Shown piece by piece: positions 1 through 19,499 of a stretch of DNA of 64,000 nt. Both the position numbers and the translations under genes were made by a program. The DNA is from Escherichia coli (lineage in GTDB: Bacteria; Pseudomonadota; Gammaproteobacteria; Enterobacterales; Enterobacteriaceae), in the NCBI RefSeq assembly GCF_050920415.1, contig NZ_CP169309.1, one strand, 5' to 3'. Position 1 is the stretch's first letter. Every line of letters starts with the position of its first letter. The notes beneath the pieces were generated by a model. That model did not search any database and was not told the origin of the DNA. It saw only the letters and a list, made by a program, of their open reading frames with translations.

Positions 1-1
1 T

Positions 2-850
2 CGATATCTGAAAATACAGGACACACGACTGAAAAATGGGGATATTGCAGCTACAACCCACAAAGAAAAAGCGCGAATGGCTGCATACCTGGTTTCCCGT
101 CTGGGAAACCACCCATTGAAAGAACTGGAAGTAAGAGACTTTGCATTAATACTGGACGAGTGGATGGATAAAGACATGGTCAGCACAGCGAGGGTAAATC
201 GCGGATTATGGGTTGATATTTATAAAGAAGCACAGCATGCAGGGGAAGTTCCTCCTGGATGGAATCCTCCGGAGGCTACCCGTAAACCGATCCCTAAAGT
301 AACCAGATCCAGACTTACCCTGGAAGACTGGCAAAAAATTTACAATGCAACACCAGAAAAACACTTTATCCGTAACGCAATGCTTCTTGCGATTGTCACT
401 GGTCAGCGCCGTGATGACATTTGCCATATGCGTTTTTCAGATGTGTGGAACGAACACTTGCATATCACCCAGGGAAAAACCGGAATGCGTCTGGCGTTAC
501 CGCTTACACTACGCTGTGATGCCATTGGTATAACGTTAAAAGAAGTTATTGATGGATGCCGAGACAGAATATTAAGTCCATATCTAATCCATAGTCGGCA
601 CCAGAAACAACCAAAGCCGATGAGTAAAGACAACCTGAGCGACTACTTTGCCAAAGCACGGGATCTGGCTGGGATAATTCCACCAGCAGGAAAAACCCCG
701 CCAACATTCCATGAACAACGCTCTCTATCAGAACGGCTGTACCGTGCACAAGGTATCGATACAAAAACATTACTGGGACATAAAGTCCAGGCAACTACCG
801 ATCGCTATAACGATACTCGAGGTCAGGAATGGGTTAAGTTGGTTGTTTGA
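2..850 (+). CDS. int: Tyrosine integrase, lambda Int family (C-terminal catalytic portion; 5' end outside window)
   Basis: Frame is open from the window edge to TGA at 848-850; sequence aligns with the lambda Int C-terminal domain (VTGQRxxD, HExRSLSxRLY, LLGH, Y..D.RG.EW motifs including catalytic Arg and Tyr). Confidence 0.9.
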   Translation, partial: RYLKIQDTRLKNGDIAATTHKEKARMAAYLVSRLGNHPLKELEVRDFALILDEWMDKDMVSTARVNRGLWVDIYKEAQHAGEVPPGWNPPEATRKPIPKVTRSRLTLEDWQKIYNATPEKHFIRNAMLLAIVTGQRRDDICHMRFSDVWNEHLHITQGKTGMRLALPLTLRCDAIGITLKEVIDGCRDRILSPYLIHSRHQKQPKPMSKDNLSDYFAKARDLAGIIPPAGKTPPTFHEQRSLSERLYRAQGIDTKTLLGHKVQATTDRYNDTRGQEWVKLVV

Positions 851-938
851 CAAAAATAACCATCCGGGATTATAGTCTGCGCACGCCAGCAAAATCTGGC
901 GTCGGGATTGGCGTCCCGGATAACATCACAACGCATAG

Positions 939-957
939 CCGCGTTTGCGGTTTTTTT
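939..957 (+). terminator. Putative weak intrinsic terminator downstream of int (4-bp GC stem, 7-T run)
   Basis: ccgc-gttt-gcgg followed by ttttttt about 90 nt after the int stop; stem is short so strength is uncertain. Confidence 0.3.
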
Positions 958-1056
958 GCGTTAAGCATTGCCACATTCGCATTATGGTGGGGCGTGCAGG
1001 GGCGGAGAAATCCGCGCCGGGTTTTGTGATGACCGGTTACGCCAACCCTGTACGTC

Positions 1057-1107
1057 TCACCACCTCCCTGATTGGCGTCAGAGGTGGTGATCATCCAATT
1101 AATTGGA
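1057..1107. promoter_or_regulatory. Operator-like symmetric elements upstream of rha: 10-bp inverted repeat with 14-bp spacer plus a 12-bp perfect palindrome overlapping the rha ribosome-binding site
   Basis: TCACCACCTC (1057-1066) and GAGGTGGTGA (1081-1090) are exact reverse complements; CCAATTAATTGG (1095-1106) is a perfect palindrome, with GGAG at 1105-1108. Confidence 0.35.
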
Positions 1108-1117
1108 GTCATCACAT

Positions 1118-1675
1118 ATGAATACAGCTATAACTTTTCCTAACGAGTCACCAAAAGTCTTTTTCAAAGATGGTCGCTTGGTTACCACCTCTCAAGCTGT
1201 TGCCGACTACTTCGATAAACAACATAAACACGTTTTAGCTAAGATTGACGCACTCGACTGCTCGCCCGAATTTACATCAGCCAACTTTTCGTCCGATGTT
1301 CAGACTGTCGAAATTGGCAACGGCGCAGAACGTGAATCACGATGCTACCTGATCACAAAAGACGGCTTCATGTTCCTCGTAATGGGATTTACTGGCAAAA
1401 AAGCAGCCAGACTAAAAGAAGCTTACATTGCAAAATTTAACGCAATGGAGGAAGAACTCCACAAACGCCCACCAGCAGCGCAGCAAACCTCGTCAGAAGA
1501 TGTCGGTTGCTCGTTGTTAATCCATTTCAATAACCACGGTCAGGTTGAGTTTACGGAAAAAGTCCCAGCCGACGCAATGGTGTGCACCCTCGAGCGTTTT
1601 AAGTTTTATCTGGAACAGCAAGGCTGGATAGTTGCCCGTAAGGAGCAACTGTTGGAAAGGTTAATGTCGCTTTAG
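1118..1675 (+). CDS. rha: Rha-family phage regulatory protein (antirepressor-like)
   Basis: 185-aa product with an N-terminal Rha/pRha-like domain (DGRLVTTSQAVADYF..KxHKHVL..I, KDGFMFLVMGFTGKKA); ATG at 1118 has GGAG 9 nt upstream; the ORF-track start at 1103 is TTG. Confidence 0.8.
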   Translation: MNTAITFPNESPKVFFKDGRLVTTSQAVADYFDKQHKHVLAKIDALDCSPEFTSANFSSDVQTVEIGNGAERESRCYLITKDGFMFLVMGFTGKKAARLKEAYIAKFNAMEEELHKRPPAAQQTSSEDVGCSLLIHFNNHGQVEFTEKVPADAMVCTLERFKFYLEQQGWIVARKEQLLERLMSL

Positions 1676-1682
1676 CTAATGC

Positions 1683-1706
1683 AAAAACCCCGGCATAGCC
1701 GGGGTT
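1683..1706 (-). terminator. Intrinsic terminator between convergent rha and the cargo operon (T-run on minus strand)
   Basis: ccccggc-ata-gccgggg hairpin at 1688-1704; A5 on the plus strand gives a U-run after the stem on the minus-strand transcript. Confidence 0.6.
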
Positions 1707-1711
1707 GGGAA

Positions 1712-2209
1712 TTATTTCAGGACAAGCGCATTCAGCGCCTCGATCACCTTTCCAAGATAACTGCCAAAAAGCCACCAGGTTACACCAGCACAGAATGAAA
1801 TCACCGCCAGACTCACGCCGATATAAACCTTTGCTTTCCTAATGGTATCATCTATGTCATCGAGTTTTTCGAGCTTTTTGTCTATTTGAGCTAACTCAGA
1901 CAATTTATGGGAATGCTCAGCAAGTGTCTTATTGATACTGTCCAGTGAGGACATTTTTTGCTCGATACCGGATAACGTTGTTTCCATACGAGTAACTGCG
2001 CATGCGAGAGACGCGTCATTTTTGACATCAGACAGGTGATTGTATACCTGATCAATTCTCTCATTCATACGCCTGTTATCCTCTTTCAGTTCATTGAAAG
2101 AATGGACGATCCATTGATGCTGTGAATGCCTTGACTCACCACCACCAGTAACTTGCGCATCTATATCCGGTGTGCGTTGGTCGCCACTATACGAAGATTC
2201 TCTCCCCAT
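1712..2209 (-). CDS. Hypothetical protein, 165 aa: predicted coiled-coil N-terminal region with a single C-terminal transmembrane helix (tail-anchored topology); function unknown
   Basis: ORF with ATG at 2209 preceded by AAGGGG 8 nt upstream and 2 nt after the upstream gene's stop; heptad-like charged region (KLSELAQIDKKLEKLDDIDDTIRKAK) then hydrophobic stretch VYIGVSLAVISFCAGVTWWLFGSYL; the longer ORF-track start at 2242 is TTG. Confidence 0.6.
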   Translation of the reverse strand: MGRESSYSGDQRTPDIDAQVTGGGESRHSQHQWIVHSFNELKEDNRRMNERIDQVYNHLSDVKNDASLACAVTRMETTLSGIEQKMSSLDSINKTLAEHSHKLSELAQIDKKLEKLDDIDDTIRKAKVYIGVSLAVISFCAGVTWWLFGSYLGKVIEALNALVLK

Positions 2210-2211
2210 AA

Positions 2212-2490
2212 TTATAGCCCCTTTGCACGCAACCACTCCCAAAGCGGCATTTTATGCCTTCCGTAATAAGAACTAACAGGGAGGATGATATATGAGTTCA
2301 AATTTTGTTCATCATTTCCACCATCCAGAACATTAAATAACTCCTGGGCAGTGGCGAGCTGGCTTTCGACGAACCAAAGGCAATCATCAACGTTCATGTG
2401 TTGCTCGGGGAATTTTTCTGCAACGACTTCCCTCATCAGCGCCCTGGTGTCATTATTTTCACTGGTTACTACGATAGCGAATATAGACAT
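2212..2490 (-). CDS. Hypothetical small acidic protein, 92 aa; first gene of the two-gene cargo operon; function unknown
   Basis: ATG at 2490 with AAAGGA upstream; appears translationally coupled to the downstream gene; no family recognised. Confidence 0.55.
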   Translation of the reverse strand: MSIFAIVVTSENNDTRALMREVVAEKFPEQHMNVDDCLWFVESQLATAQELFNVLDGGNDEQNLNSYIILPVSSYYGRHKMPLWEWLRAKGL

Positions 2491-2620
2491 GGGTGTGAGT
2501 CCTTTACGATAGTGCTCAAAAACAGTTCTGCAATAGAAATGTAAATCTGAGAAAACTGTCAGGTAAACCTAATGTTTAGCTATCTTATGTAGTTGACTTG
2601 AGCAAAACAAGAGAAAACAT
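2491..2620 (-). promoter_or_regulatory. Putative promoter region for the cargo operon
   Basis: AT-rich region upstream of the 2490 start; candidate sigma70-like hexamers on the minus strand (TTGCAG, 16 bp, TATCGT; TTTACC, 17 bp, TTACAT); none is a strong consensus match. Confidence 0.25.
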
Positions 2621-2739
2621 CACGAGACAGCAAATTTTGCAAACGAGCACAAAATATAAAAAGCTCCATCTATCAACAAAAGCTCGTCCGCAAACCAAGA
2701 AAAAATGTTGTAAAATGCGCAGCCTGTTTTGGGGAAAAG

Positions 2740-2759
2740 TTTTGGAGAGATTTTGGAGA
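2740..2759 (+). repeat. Direct repeat TTTTGGAGA x2 at 11-bp periodicity in an A-tract-rich segment next to the prophage-host junction
   Basis: Copies at 2740-2748 and 2751-2759. Confidence 0.5.
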
Positions 2760-2796
2760 AAGGAAAAAATTGAATAAATTCAAAATCCTGAAAGTG

Positions 2797-2832
2797 TCCC
2801 GCCTTATGAATAAGAAGGTGGAACTCGAATGA
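2797..2832 (+). other. potB: potB 3'-terminal remnant (about the last 11 codons, SRLMNKKVELE-stop) and probable prophage-chromosome junction (att core vicinity)
   Basis: Frame ending TGA at 2830-2832 in ATGA overlap with potC; C-terminal peptide resembles the PotB C-terminus as recalled; the same frame upstream is lysine-rich, unlike a permease, and stops at 2599-2601. Confidence 0.45.
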
Positions 2833-3623
2833 TCGGTCGACTGCTTCGCGGCGGTTTTATGACCGCTATCTACGCGTACCTGTATATCCCAATCATTATT
2901 TTGATTGTGAACTCTTTCAACAGCTCGCGCTTTGGCATCAACTGGCAGGGTTTTACCACCAAATGGTATAGCCTGCTGATGAACAACGACAGTCTGTTGC
3001 AGGCAGCTCAGCATTCACTGACGATGGCGGTGTTTTCGGCGACGTTTGCTACGCTTATCGGTTCACTGACGGCAGTTGCGTTGTACCGTTATCGCTTTCG
3101 TGGTAAGCCGTTCGTTAGCGGAATGCTGTTTGTGGTGATGATGTCGCCAGATATTGTGATGGCGATTTCTCTGCTGGTGCTGTTTATGCTGCTGGGTATT
3201 CAGCTTGGCTTCTGGTCGCTGCTGTTCTCGCATATCACCTTCTGCCTGCCGTTTGTGGTGGTGACGGTGTATTCGCGCCTGAAAGGTTTTGACGTGCGAA
3301 TGCTGGAAGCGGCGAAAGATCTCGGTGCCAGCGAATTTACCATTCTGCGAAAAATCATTCTGCCACTGGCAATGCCAGCGGTAGCGGCGGGCTGGGTGTT
3401 AAGCTTTACCCTGTCGATGGACGACGTGGTGGTTTCTTCGTTTGTCACCGGGCCGAGTTATGAAATTCTGCCGTTAAAAATTTATTCGATGGTCAAAGTC
3501 GGCGTATCGCCGGAAGTTAACGCGCTGGCAACCATATTACTGGTGCTGTCGCTGGTGATGGTAATTGCCAGCCAGCTTATTGCTCGTGATAAAACGAAAG
3601 GTAACACAGGGGACGTTAAATGA
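2829..3623 (+). CDS. potC: Spermidine/putrescine ABC transporter permease PotC
   Basis: 264-aa polytopic permease matching PotC; ATGA overlap with the potD start. Confidence 0.95.
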   Translation: MIGRLLRGGFMTAIYAYLYIPIIILIVNSFNSSRFGINWQGFTTKWYSLLMNNDSLLQAAQHSLTMAVFSATFATLIGSLTAVALYRYRFRGKPFVSGMLFVVMMSPDIVMAISLLVLFMLLGIQLGFWSLLFSHITFCLPFVVVTVYSRLKGFDVRMLEAAKDLGASEFTILRKIILPLAMPAVAAGWVLSFTLSMDDVVVSSFVTGPSYEILPLKIYSMVKVGVSPEVNALATILLVLSLVMVIASQLIARDKTKGNTGDVK

Positions 3624-4666
3624 AAAAATGGTCACGCCACCTGCTCGCGGCGGGTGCTCTGGCACTGGGCATGAGCGCCGCTCACGCCGATGACAACAAC
3701 ACGCTGTATTTCTACAACTGGACCGAGTACGTGCCGCCAGGACTGCTTGAACAGTTCACCAAAGAAACCGGTATTAAGGTTATCTATTCGACTTACGAGT
3801 CGAACGAAACCATGTACGCGAAGCTGAAAACGTACAAAGACGGTGCCTATGACCTGGTGGTTCCTTCAACCTATTACGTCGATAAAATGCGTAAAGAAGG
3901 GATGATCCAGAAGATCGACAAGTCGAAGTTAAGCAATTTCAGCAACCTCGATCCAGACATGCTCAACAAGCCGTTTGACCCGAATAACGACTATTCCATT
4001 CCGTATATCTGGGGTGCGACGGCGATTGGCGTTAACGGTGATGCGGTGGATCCGAAATCTGTCACCAGCTGGGCCGATCTGTGGAAACCTGAGTACAAAG
4101 GCAGCCTGCTGCTGACCGACGATGCCCGTGAAGTGTTCCAGATGGCGCTGCGCAAACTGGGCTACTCCGGTAACACCACCGATCCGAAAGAGATTGAAGC
4201 TGCGTATAACGAGCTGAAAAAACTGATGCCAAACGTAGCGGCGTTTAACTCCGATAACCCAGCTAACCCGTACATGGAAGGCGAAGTTAACCTCGGCATG
4301 ATCTGGAACGGTTCCGCTTTCGTTGCACGCCAGGCGGGTACGCCAATTGACGTGGTATGGCCGAAAGAAGGCGGCATTTTCTGGATGGACAGCCTGGCGA
4401 TCCCGGCAAATGCCAAAAACAAAGAGGGCGCGCTGAAATTGATCAACTTCCTGCTGCGCCCGGATGTGGCAAAACAGGTTGCTGAAACTATCGGTTATCC
4501 AACGCCAAACCTCGCCGCGCGTAAGCTGTTAAGCCCGGAAATAGCGGACGACAAGACGCTCTACCCGGATGCTGAAACCATTAAAAATGGCGAATGGCAG
4601 AATGACGTTGGCGCAGCCAGCAGCATTTATGAAGAGTATTATCAGAAGCTGAAAGCAGGACGTTAA
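3620..4666 (+). CDS. potD: Spermidine/putrescine ABC transporter periplasmic binding protein PotD
   Basis: 348-aa product with signal peptide; matches PotD. Confidence 0.95.
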   Translation: MKKWSRHLLAAGALALGMSAAHADDNNTLYFYNWTEYVPPGLLEQFTKETGIKVIYSTYESNETMYAKLKTYKDGAYDLVVPSTYYVDKMRKEGMIQKIDKSKLSNFSNLDPDMLNKPFDPNNDYSIPYIWGATAIGVNGDAVDPKSVTSWADLWKPEYKGSLLLTDDAREVFQMALRKLGYSGNTTDPKEIEAAYNELKKLMPNVAAFNSDNPANPYMEGEVNLGMIWNGSAFVARQAGTPIDVVWPKEGGIFWMDSLAIPANAKNKEGALKLINFLLRPDVAKQVAETIGYPTPNLAARKLLSPEIADDKTLYPDAETIKNGEWQNDVGAASSIYEEYYQKLKAGR

Positions 4667-4674
4667 TTCAGCAA

Positions 4675-4704
4675 GCGGGCGGTGGTATTACCGCCCGTTT
4701 TTTC
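4675..4704 (+). terminator. Intrinsic terminator after potD
   Basis: gcgggcgg...ccgcccg hairpin followed by a T6 run. Confidence 0.7.
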
Positions 4705-4841
4705 ATTTAGCAAGGATGTGGCTAATGTTGCTGTTATGGACGAGTAAACGCTAAAAGAGGCAGTAAATATGCCAGATGCGGCGTCAACGACTTCTCTGGT
4801 CTACGACACCCGCAAATTCAATTCATTGCGCCCCATCGCAG

Positions 4842-4866
4842 GCCTGATAAGCGTAGCGCATCAGGC
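4842..4866. repeat. REP (repetitive extragenic palindrome) element
   Basis: GCCTGATAAGCGTAGCGCATCAGGC palindrome typical of enterobacterial REP. Confidence 0.7.
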
Positions 4867-4879
4867 AATGCTTCCTGCT

Positions 4880-5701
4880 TTATAAGCCCTTCAGCAACTT
4901 TTCAACAAACTCTGGCACCACCTGGCTTGCCGGGCCGTAATATTTCTCGGCAAATTCATTACCGACCTGACTCGGTTCAAGATTGAGTTCCACAGTGTGC
5001 GCACCATGCAGTTTCGCTTCGTGAACAAATCCAGCCGCCGGATAAACATGCCCGGAAGTACCAATGGCAATGAAAATATCGGCCATCGACAACGCCATAT
5101 AAATTTCATCCATGCCGAGTGGCATTTCGCCAAACCAAACGACGTGCGGGCGCAAGGGTGCCGGGAACTGGCAACAATGGCATTTATCTTCTGGCGTAAC
5201 GTCTCCGGTCCAGTCGAGAATCTGACCACTTTGCGAACAGCGAACTTTCAGCAATTCCCCATGCATATGAATCACATTGGTATTACCTGCGCGTTCGTGC
5301 AGATTGTCGATATTCTGCGTCACCAGCAAAAAGCGATCGCCGAGAGCATCTTGCAGTTTAGCCAGCGCAAGATGCGCGGCGTTAGGCTGAATTTCTGGCT
5401 GCTGCAGCTGTCGACGGCGGGCGTTATAAAACGCTTGTACCAGTTCAGGATCGCGATCGAAACCTTCCGGCGTTGCCACATCTTCAACCCGATGTTCTTC
5501 CCACAGGCCATCTGCGGCGCGAAAGGTACGAATACCTGATTCCGCAGAAATACCTGCCCCAGTCAGTACGAGTACTCTTGGTTTTTCCATTGCTTCCGGC
5601 ACCACTTTATCTCTGAAAAAAATACGCTGACGCAAACGCTCGCGCAGGCGGCGTTTATTTTTACGAAAACGACTTAACCGATGACCCCGACGCGACAGCA
5701 T
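4880..5701 (-). CDS. cobB: NAD-dependent protein deacylase CobB (sirtuin), long isoform with Arg-rich N-terminal extension
   Basis: 273-aa product; [10 protein letters not shown] and sirtuin Zn-binding Cys motifs; ends KGL-stop. Confidence 0.93.
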
Positions 5702-5716
5702 AGCAACCTCTGTTGT

Positions 5717-6628
5717 TTAATCGGTTAGATGTAGGAAAGCCGCACCACGCATTCCTCCCGCATCACCGTGGCGCGCGCGTTCAATGCGCGGAACACGAGC
5801 TACAGGTAAGAGATGACGAGGCAGCCTGTCCGCCAGTTGCGTTGTGATTGCCGGGAAATTCGATAAGCCACCACCAATGACGACCAGGTCAGGGTCAACA
5901 ATGGTCAGGATATTTCCCAGACAAACCGCTAATAAATCCAGATAACGCTCAACGTGCGCCCTTGCCTGCTCATCGCCTTGATCATAAAGCGCAATAATTT
6001 CGGGAGCCTGCAACGGTTGATGATAATAGTGTTGATACAGCCACGCAAAACCGCGACCAGACAGATAATTTTCAATGCAGCCATGCTGACCACAGCCGCA
6101 GCGGCGTAATGGGAAATCCAGCCCCATCATGGTTAACGCATCAACCGGCAGACGCATATGGCCAAACTCGCCGGTAATATAGCTTTTACCGGTAATTGGT
6201 TTACCGTTGAAAATCAGCCCGCCGCCAACGCCGGTGCCGAGAATCAACCCCATCACCAGTGGATATTGAGTAAATTCATCATCCCAGGCTTCTGAAAGGG
6301 CAAAACAGTTGGCATCGTTATCAAGGCGGACATCGCGATCAAGACGTACGCTCAGGTCGGCACGCAGCGATTTACCGCTGGCAGCGGGGACATTGGCGGC
6401 ATACAGCGTACCATCTTCTGTTTCCGGCATTCCCGGAATACCGATGCCTACAGAACCTTTACAGCCAAAACGCTTATCGGCTTCAGCCACCAGCTCGCAC
6501 ACTGCATCTAAAAATGCGTCATAGCTGTCACGCGGTGTCGGCACCCGCTTTTCCCACTGCAACTGCCGACCGCTATCAAACACGCCAAGCGCAATTTTTG
6601 TTCCACCAATATCAAACCCGTAATACAT
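5717..6628 (-). CDS. nagK: N-acetyl-D-glucosamine kinase
   Basis: 303-aa ROK-family kinase starting [11 protein letters not shown]; ATG at 6628 with AAGGAG upstream; ORF-track start is an upstream extension. Confidence 0.93.
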
Positions 6629-6656
6629 TGCCGCTCCTTGTTTTAATGTACTGCCT

Positions 6657-9914
<3,258 letters not shown>

Positions 9915-17752: not shown

Positions 17753-17841
<89 letters not shown>

Positions 17842-19417: not shown

Positions 19418-19499
<82 letters not shown>

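Follow-up and report, generated by a model that had tools for sequence, protein, structure and literature searches.

The potD-cobB spacer of an Escherichia coli lineage as the probable scar of a ymfA-ycfZ deletion beside an intact cobB gene

Introduction

Between potD and the 3' end of cobB, the window (the whole 64,000-nucleotide stretch of Escherichia coli DNA analysed here, from contig NZ_CP169309.1 of assembly GCF_050920415.1) holds a spacer of only 213 bp (4667-4879), and its cobB encodes 273 amino acids. E. coli K-12 carries ycfZ and ymfA at this place, and its CobB has 279 amino acids with the end ...KGLKAGSIA. The locus raises the question of whether the two genes were lost from this lineage or never entered it, and whether the shorter CobB is a truncated protein, an assembly error or the original form. 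A sequence-only reading of the window had noticed both features and had set them against the K-12 arrangement. Its description of the junction agrees with the sequence throughout (the 213-bp spacing, the cobB stop codon at 4880-4882, the 273 amino acids, and KAGSIA-TGA in the +1 frame), what it says of the two genes and of the CobB end in K-12 is correct for MG1655, and an alignment with K-12 places the differences at exactly the two points it named, one base at the cobB 3' end and the islet.

The explanation favoured here, and held to be very probable, is that a natural deletion of about 1.22 kb removed ymfA and ycfZ and left the spacer as its scar, next to an intact cobB with the ancestral stop codon, the K-12 form of the gene having arisen later. 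What the locus shows is ordinary variation between lineages, which annotated public genomes already display, and its importance is small for biology and lies mainly in annotation.

Genomic context

In MG1655 the gene order is lolCDE-nagK-cobB, then ycfZ, ymfA, potD, potC, potB and potA on the opposite strand. The region corresponds to b1120-b1123, with a cobB of 840 nt, and the K-12 laboratory strain ME8067 has the same locus. In the window, nagK is found immediately upstream of cobB, and the potC-lolE flanks are about 96-97% identical to those of K-12 and of O157, ST131 and 118UI/TUM20902 representatives, which agrees with the non-K-12 lineage proposed in the earlier reading. Strain MFDS1022581 is 100% identical to the window over 4500-7900 and differs in its prophage cargo. 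The features of the junction are as follows.

3620-4666, plus strand: potD coding sequence, 348 aa (open reading frame list), with TAA at 4664-4666; an identical stretch is annotated as PotD in RefSeq (strain MFDS1022581)
4673-4704, plus strand: predicted intrinsic terminator of potD (terminator scan), a 12-pair G+C-rich hairpin at 4673-4700 followed by the T run TTTTCATTT
4708-4727, plus strand: left end of the lost islet, comprising the ymfA upstream region, AAGGA and the ymfA ATG (4725-4727); homology to K-12 and O104:H4 ends at 4727
4725-4754, plus strand: 9-codon mini-ORF of the scar (MLLLWTSKR-stop), in which the ymfA ATG runs in frame into the final ycfZ codons
4732-4754, plus strand: terminal 23 nt of ycfZ with the stop TAA (4752-4754), marking the right edge of the lost islet in the K-12 and multi-species alignments
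4771-4804, plus strand: decayed REP, Y-type, with about six mismatches (hand count) against the copies in islet-bearing strains
4808-4837, no strand assigned: inter-REP linker of about 30 nt holding GCAAATTCAATTCATTGC (4812-4829, motif search), conserved in all aligned Escherichia loci
4838-4866, minus strand: intact REP, reading GCCTGATGCGCTACGCTTATCAGGCCTGC on the minus strand; exact match, hairpin in the RNA fold, conserved in all Escherichia
4880-4882, minus strand: cobB stop codon TAA (complement); base 4882 is the one nucleotide that K-12 lacks
4880-5701, minus strand: cobB, full length, 273 aa, Sir2-family NAD+-dependent protein deacylase (open reading frame list), with the protein end ...EKLLKGL

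With its G+C-rich hairpin and T run right after the stop codon, the structure behind potD has the make-up of a predicted Rho-independent terminator. Its RNA fold reaches -20.3 kcal/mol (z = -5.0), none of 200 shuffles folds equally well, and alignments show it to be common to K-12, O157 and the cryptic clade. Both potD and cobB have retained their own 3' structures in the window.

A deletion scar between potD and cobB

The sequence-only reading had accounted for the spacer as the potD terminator plus one REP. Both are present, and the spacer additionally holds pieces of both islet genes, ymfA and ycfZ, as well as a further REP in a decayed state. Positions 4640-4727 match K-12 at 97.7% identity through the ymfA ATG, and positions 4732-4761 match the 3' end of K-12 ycfZ (L003 3952-3981) at 93% identity. 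Comparison with O104:H4 gives the same two homology blocks as K-12, flanking a single junction, and the ycfZ tail with the downstream REP-linker-REP aligns with nine Escherichia loci. By this homology the 213-bp spacer is best described as a remnant that matches both islet ends around one junction. The earlier statement that the islet is lacking holds for the genes, which are absent; both ends of the islet are retained, hence it appears to have been deleted and is not simply missing.

The deletion would start just past the ymfA start codon and end 23 nt before the ycfZ stop. Left behind would be the terminator of potD, then the ribosome-binding site and ATG of ymfA, now joined to the tail of ycfZ, and finally the REP-linker-REP that separates ycfZ from cobB in all Escherichia. 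The fusion creates the mini-ORF ATG-TTG-CTG-TTA-TGG-ACG-AGT-AAA-CGC-TAA, which is a by-product of the deletion and for which no function is proposed. Because homology at the junction amounts to at most a few bases, an illegitimate deletion, through microhomology or slippage, would be the most likely mechanism. The junction bases themselves (4728-4731, TTGC) are assignable to neither side with the alleles compared.

No direct islet-bearing ancestor allele was found among the genomes compared, the closest flank haplotypes beyond the 14 carriers of this junction being also without the islet (O157-type deletion). Compared with all islet-bearing E. coli examined, the remnant shows unusual divergence, both in the mismatches of the decayed REP and in a 12-bp deletion at 4768/4769, just upstream of that REP, which is unique among the aligned sequences. 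It may be that the scar arose in an unsampled lineage and reached this one by recombination, instead of having formed in place.

Frequency of the junction and the O157-type loss

Among 5426 complete E. coli genomes, potD and cobB are adjacent in 576. The exact window junction, represented by a 52-mer, occurs in 14 of the 5426 genomes, from dog, human, cattle, goat, pig and food, with no annotated feature at that place. In the cobB-lolE flank, no other genomes come as close to the window as these 14 carriers (98.7-100% identity). Since the exact junction recurs in 14 complete genomes from varied hosts, which are also closest in the flank, the deletion is best regarded as natural and not as an artefact.

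A second type of junction, that of O157:H7, is far from identical with the one in the window. It is present in about 559 genomes and also in the cryptic-clade Escherichia sp. E1V33 (L009). O157:H7 strains (LSU61, TW14359, Xuzhou21) resemble the window in that ymfA-ycfZ is gone, cobB has 822 nt with TTATAA, the same REP follows cobB, and a prophage integrase lies just upstream of potC. In contrast to the window, their spacer measures 155 bp, about 45 nt of ymfA are kept, and the ycfZ tail, the first REP and the linker are lost; the ymfA remnant, of an O104:H4-like, B1-like allele, is joined directly to the sequence before the second REP. This stretch was considered as foreign filler DNA, having no match in the K-12 islet, but it corresponds to the beginning of ymfA in a divergent, B1-like allele. 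The O157-type loss is best explained as a separate deletion with other endpoints.

That both junction types go back to one deletion event, one having later been modified into the other, might be suspected because the next-closest flank genomes after the 14 carriers (2017-02-2CC and 2020CK-00188) have the O157-type junction and because both scar types share the TTATAA stop. The shared stop is explained by its being the ancestral allele, however, and the O157 type keeps ymfA from nt 4 to about 45 whereas the window keeps the ycfZ tail, first REP and linker. As each retains islet sequence that the other has lost, neither type would derive from the other by further deletion, and a common event is very unlikely. 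Slightly less credible still is the idea that the spacer represents an ancestral empty site, which ymfA-ycfZ never entered in this lineage, a state seen in Salmonella and Citrobacter. In genera other than Escherichia, potD and cobB are indeed adjacent without the islet, and the empty state is ancestral at the family level. The spacer, though, has kept the start codon of ymfA with its ribosome-binding site, the final 23 nt of the ycfZ reading frame with the stop codon, and the REP-linker-REP found 3' of ycfZ elsewhere, and the spacers of other genera, compared by length alone, have 35-110 bp against the 213 bp observed here.

The shape of the scar, with an ATG in frame with the last eight codons, is like that of a designed in-frame deletion, and a laboratory construct was considered for this reason. 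Such an origin is hardly conceivable given that FRT, lox or restriction-site scars are absent at the junction, that the 14 isolates sharing the junction come from several hosts, have at least two countries on record and differ by up to 1.3% in their flanks, and that strain E69 (L010) has a similar near-precise natural deletion, of ycfZ alone. A natural deletion of the islet is the preferred reading over all three.

Ancestral and derived forms of CobB

The window CobB matches the Pfam SIR2 family (PF02146, E = 3.5e-54) with residues 48-221 over the complete profile (1-180 of 180), and it is identical to K-12 CobB at 272 of 273 positions over residues 1-273. Near-identity, nagK-cobB synteny and the ...LLKGL end mark it as the ortholog of E. 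coli/Salmonella CobB, with predicted deacylase activity. The sole difference at the cobB 3' end is one base, with GCTTTATAAG in the window and GCTTT-TAAT in K-12, the extra base being window position 4882. Read in the cobB sense, this gives TTA TAA in the window and TTA AAA in K-12. On the minus strand from 4881 to 4861, one base out of frame, the window still reads AAA GCA GGA AGC ATT GCC TGA, that is KAGSIA-stop. The window equivalent of the K-12 cobB TGA (4861-4863) falls within the REP sequence at 4842-4866, and the K-12 cobB stop (L003 4094-4096) is inside the REP at L003 4075-4099.

The window cobB had been described as ending six codons early relative to K-12; the comparative data reverse this direction. 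To place the change, one genome per GTDB species was scanned for CobB relatives, and 80 loci were kept and each read to its stop. CobB ends in KGL at 75 of these 80 Enterobacteriaceae species loci, with lengths of 272-276 aa, mostly 273. The end ...LLKGL followed by a stop is found at all Citrobacter and Salmonella loci and at nearly all loci of Enterobacter, Kosakonia, Cedecea and Leclercia. All six species-level genomes of Escherichia (L008 and L010, which are deposited as E. coli and whose flanks are about 93% identical to the window, together with sp. E1V33, E. whittamii, sp. MOD1-EC7003 and E. albertii) encode a CobB of 273 aa with KGL and then the stop, and in a nine-locus nucleotide alignment TTTATAA stands at the cobB stop of every Escherichia locus but K-12.

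Within E. coli, alleles were counted with 44/45-mers centred on the indel; an exact 28-mer was required, and any such seed spans the indel. The extra-base state was assigned to 3657 of the 5426 complete genomes (2956 with an O157-like flank and 701 with a window-like flank) and the K-12 stop-loss state to 1702, including K-12 derivatives, BAP1 and SEC470, with 67 genomes (1.2%) unclassified. An 822-nt cobB encoding 273 aa is confirmed by RefSeq annotation in the seven extra-base genomes inspected for it. Because all Escherichia species-level loci end in KGL-stop, the family-wide loci mostly do so in KGL and the majority of E. coli share this state, the 273-aa CobB is taken to be the ancestral form, and it is that of the majority (at least 67% of complete E. 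coli genomes). The 279-aa CobB of K-12 is accordingly a derived stop-loss allele: through a 1-nt deletion, one T was lost from TTATAA to give TTAAAA, the stop was removed, and ribosomes can read KAGSIA on to the TGA within the REP, an extension of the frame by six codons.

The earlier reading had kept a single-base assembly error as its alternative, in which the true gene would be the 279-aa K-12 form. The sole point in its favour is general: errors that add or drop one nucleotide are frequent in short homopolymers. Against this stand the same indel state in 3657 complete genomes and in all other aligned Escherichia species and clades, the KGL end in 75 of 80 species representatives of the family, and the complete identity of MFDS1022581 over 4500-7900. 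On account of these counts of the indel state across genomes, an assembly or sequencing error at 4882 is ruled out for practical purposes.

Nor do the two differences from K-12 form one linked signature. In 118UI, TUM20902, O104:H4 and an ST131 strain, cobB has the 273-aa allele and the ymfA-ycfZ islet is still intact. Islet loss and cobB stop allele are therefore independent of each other, and the presence of both here means only that the lineage is unlike K-12. At cobB the exception is K-12, and pipelines or readers that measure other strains by it will misflag a widespread allele as a truncation or a frameshift error.

REP elements of the spacer

The spacer holds two REPs in inverted orientation around the conserved 30-nt linker, the left one being decayed in the window. 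In BIME-1/RIP elements, an L motif of roughly 30 nt that carries a binding site for IHF lies between two inverted REPs, and the linker sequence GCAAATTCAATTCATTGC may resemble this motif and its IHF site. The REP consensus has the arms GCCKGATGCG ... CTTATCMGGCCTAC. The minus strand of 4838-4866 reads GCCTGATGCG-CTACG-CTTATCAGGCCTGC, an imperfect palindrome that fits these arms. With a 601-bp query that includes the spacer, the median number of matching places per genome is 8 (57,864 in all), against a single place for adjacent 45-mers that take in no more of the REP than its last 7 nt. Consensus arms, many copies per genome and an extragenic position at this locus argue for the assignment of the intact element as a REP. 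Two perfect matches to the canonical 37-nt REP consensus lie elsewhere in the window, at 17753-17789 and 19418-19454, on opposite strands and about 1.6 kb apart, and the arms of the intact REP recur in both.

The decayed REP has a fold that is indistinguishable from shuffles. A scan of 4500-5000 for small RNAs against Rfam returned only spurious matches and sub-threshold ones of the REP-type naRNA4, a REP-derived family with a weak match at 4730-4801.

The intact REP begins 13 nt 3' of the window cobB stop, and the distance between cobB and the REP is fixed in all nine aligned loci. Only in K-12-type strains is the REP overlapped by the cobB 3' end. REPs at most 15 nt from a stop codon are reported to stall terminating ribosomes and to lower translation, according to the summary of Liang, Rudd and Deutscher (2015) given in PMC12306157. 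By the distance given there, both cobB alleles fall into this stop-proximal class (at most 15 nt), with the difference that the K-12 stop lies inside the hairpin. PMC12306157 does not mention cobB.

Distribution and decay of ymfA-ycfZ

According to Pfam, the product of ymfA carries DUF3592 and that of ycfZ a TPM domain. No YmfA or YcfZ match lies beside cobB at any of the 74 non-Escherichia species loci, at which potD is mostly 35-110 bp from cobB. The pair is best viewed as an Escherichia-specific insertion at a variable site that has been secondarily lost several times. In strain E69 (L010 4320-4907), ycfZ alone was lost almost precisely, with 14 nt kept at its 5' and 15 nt at its 3' end. 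MOD1-EC7003 (L012 4320-4912) has two internal deletions, one covering the ymfA 3' end and the ycfZ 5' end and the other the 3' part of ycfZ. In Escherichia sp. E1V33 (L009 4322-4481) the O157-type junction is present although the flanks share only about 93-96% identity with the window. Together with the O157 type, E69 and MOD1-EC7003, the window type points to at least four independent decays of the islet.

Loss of a defence island is unsupported as an explanation, since a PADLOC search of YmfA and YcfZ against known anti-phage defence models gave no match. One paper lists ycfZ and ymfA, without functional test, among genes that are variably present in field isolates. As an accessory pair restricted to Escherichia and repeatedly lost, ymfA-ycfZ provides background for work on these uncharacterised membrane proteins. 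Perhaps recurrent loss of the islet reflects selection against the two membrane proteins in certain hosts or niches and not neutral decay, and the stop-loss of K-12 and phylogroup A alters CobB levels; taken jointly, these two proposals are unlikely to hold. If they did, a cobB stop within a REP could shift global lysine acetylation in the strain behind nearly all CobB biology.

MG1655 is like the window in the flanking genes, the potD terminator, the REP-linker-REP and a near-identical CobB. It differs in that the 1.25-kb islet is kept and in the 1-nt deletion that turns TAA into AAA, adds KAGSIA and places the stop within the REP. Salmonella and Citrobacter share with the window a CobB of 273 aa with the LLKGL end and the arrangement of potD and cobB as convergent neighbours. 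They differ from it in their spacers, which are mostly 49-106 bp long (84-87 bp in Salmonella), and in having no YmfA or YcfZ match beside cobB. The convergent potD/cobB site is variable across the Enterobacteriaceae.

Several other genes were observed at the potD/cobB junction of individual genera. Some Citrobacter carry a PEMT/ICMT-like membrane protein of 168-172 aa (L016 4344-4850), and several Enterobacter an EAL/HDOD protein (L043 4546-5775). Cedecea sulfonylureivorans has an amidase there (L070 4330-5808), to which an ORF in Dryocola is very similar, and Superficieibacter a 107-aa protein with no Pfam family (L080 4425-4748).

Prophage neighbourhood

On the potC side, the window begins within a prophage that continues to the left past its first position. 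Positions 1-854 align to the integrase of the potB prophages in MFDS1022581 and O157. The segment 2696-2832 holds the right prophage end in potB, with homology to K-12 only from 2807 onward, so that no more than the last 26 nt of potB are left ahead of potC (start 2829); the part 2696-2806 is common to the potB prophages of O157:H7 and MFDS1022581. Window positions 1-3000 have no full-length match at 99% identity or more among the 5426 RefSeq complete E. coli genomes. Between the integrase gene and the potC-side prophage end lies a cargo of 1.84 kb (855-2695) with the following genes.

1103-1675: Rha-family regulator (Pfam Phage_pRha)
1712-2242, minus strand: 176-aa protein with weak, partial PADLOC matches to long SMC-like defence proteins
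2212-2490, minus strand: 92-aa protein, no family

This cargo is absent from the otherwise closest genome, and it is found at about 94% identity in only 2 of the 5426 complete genomes.
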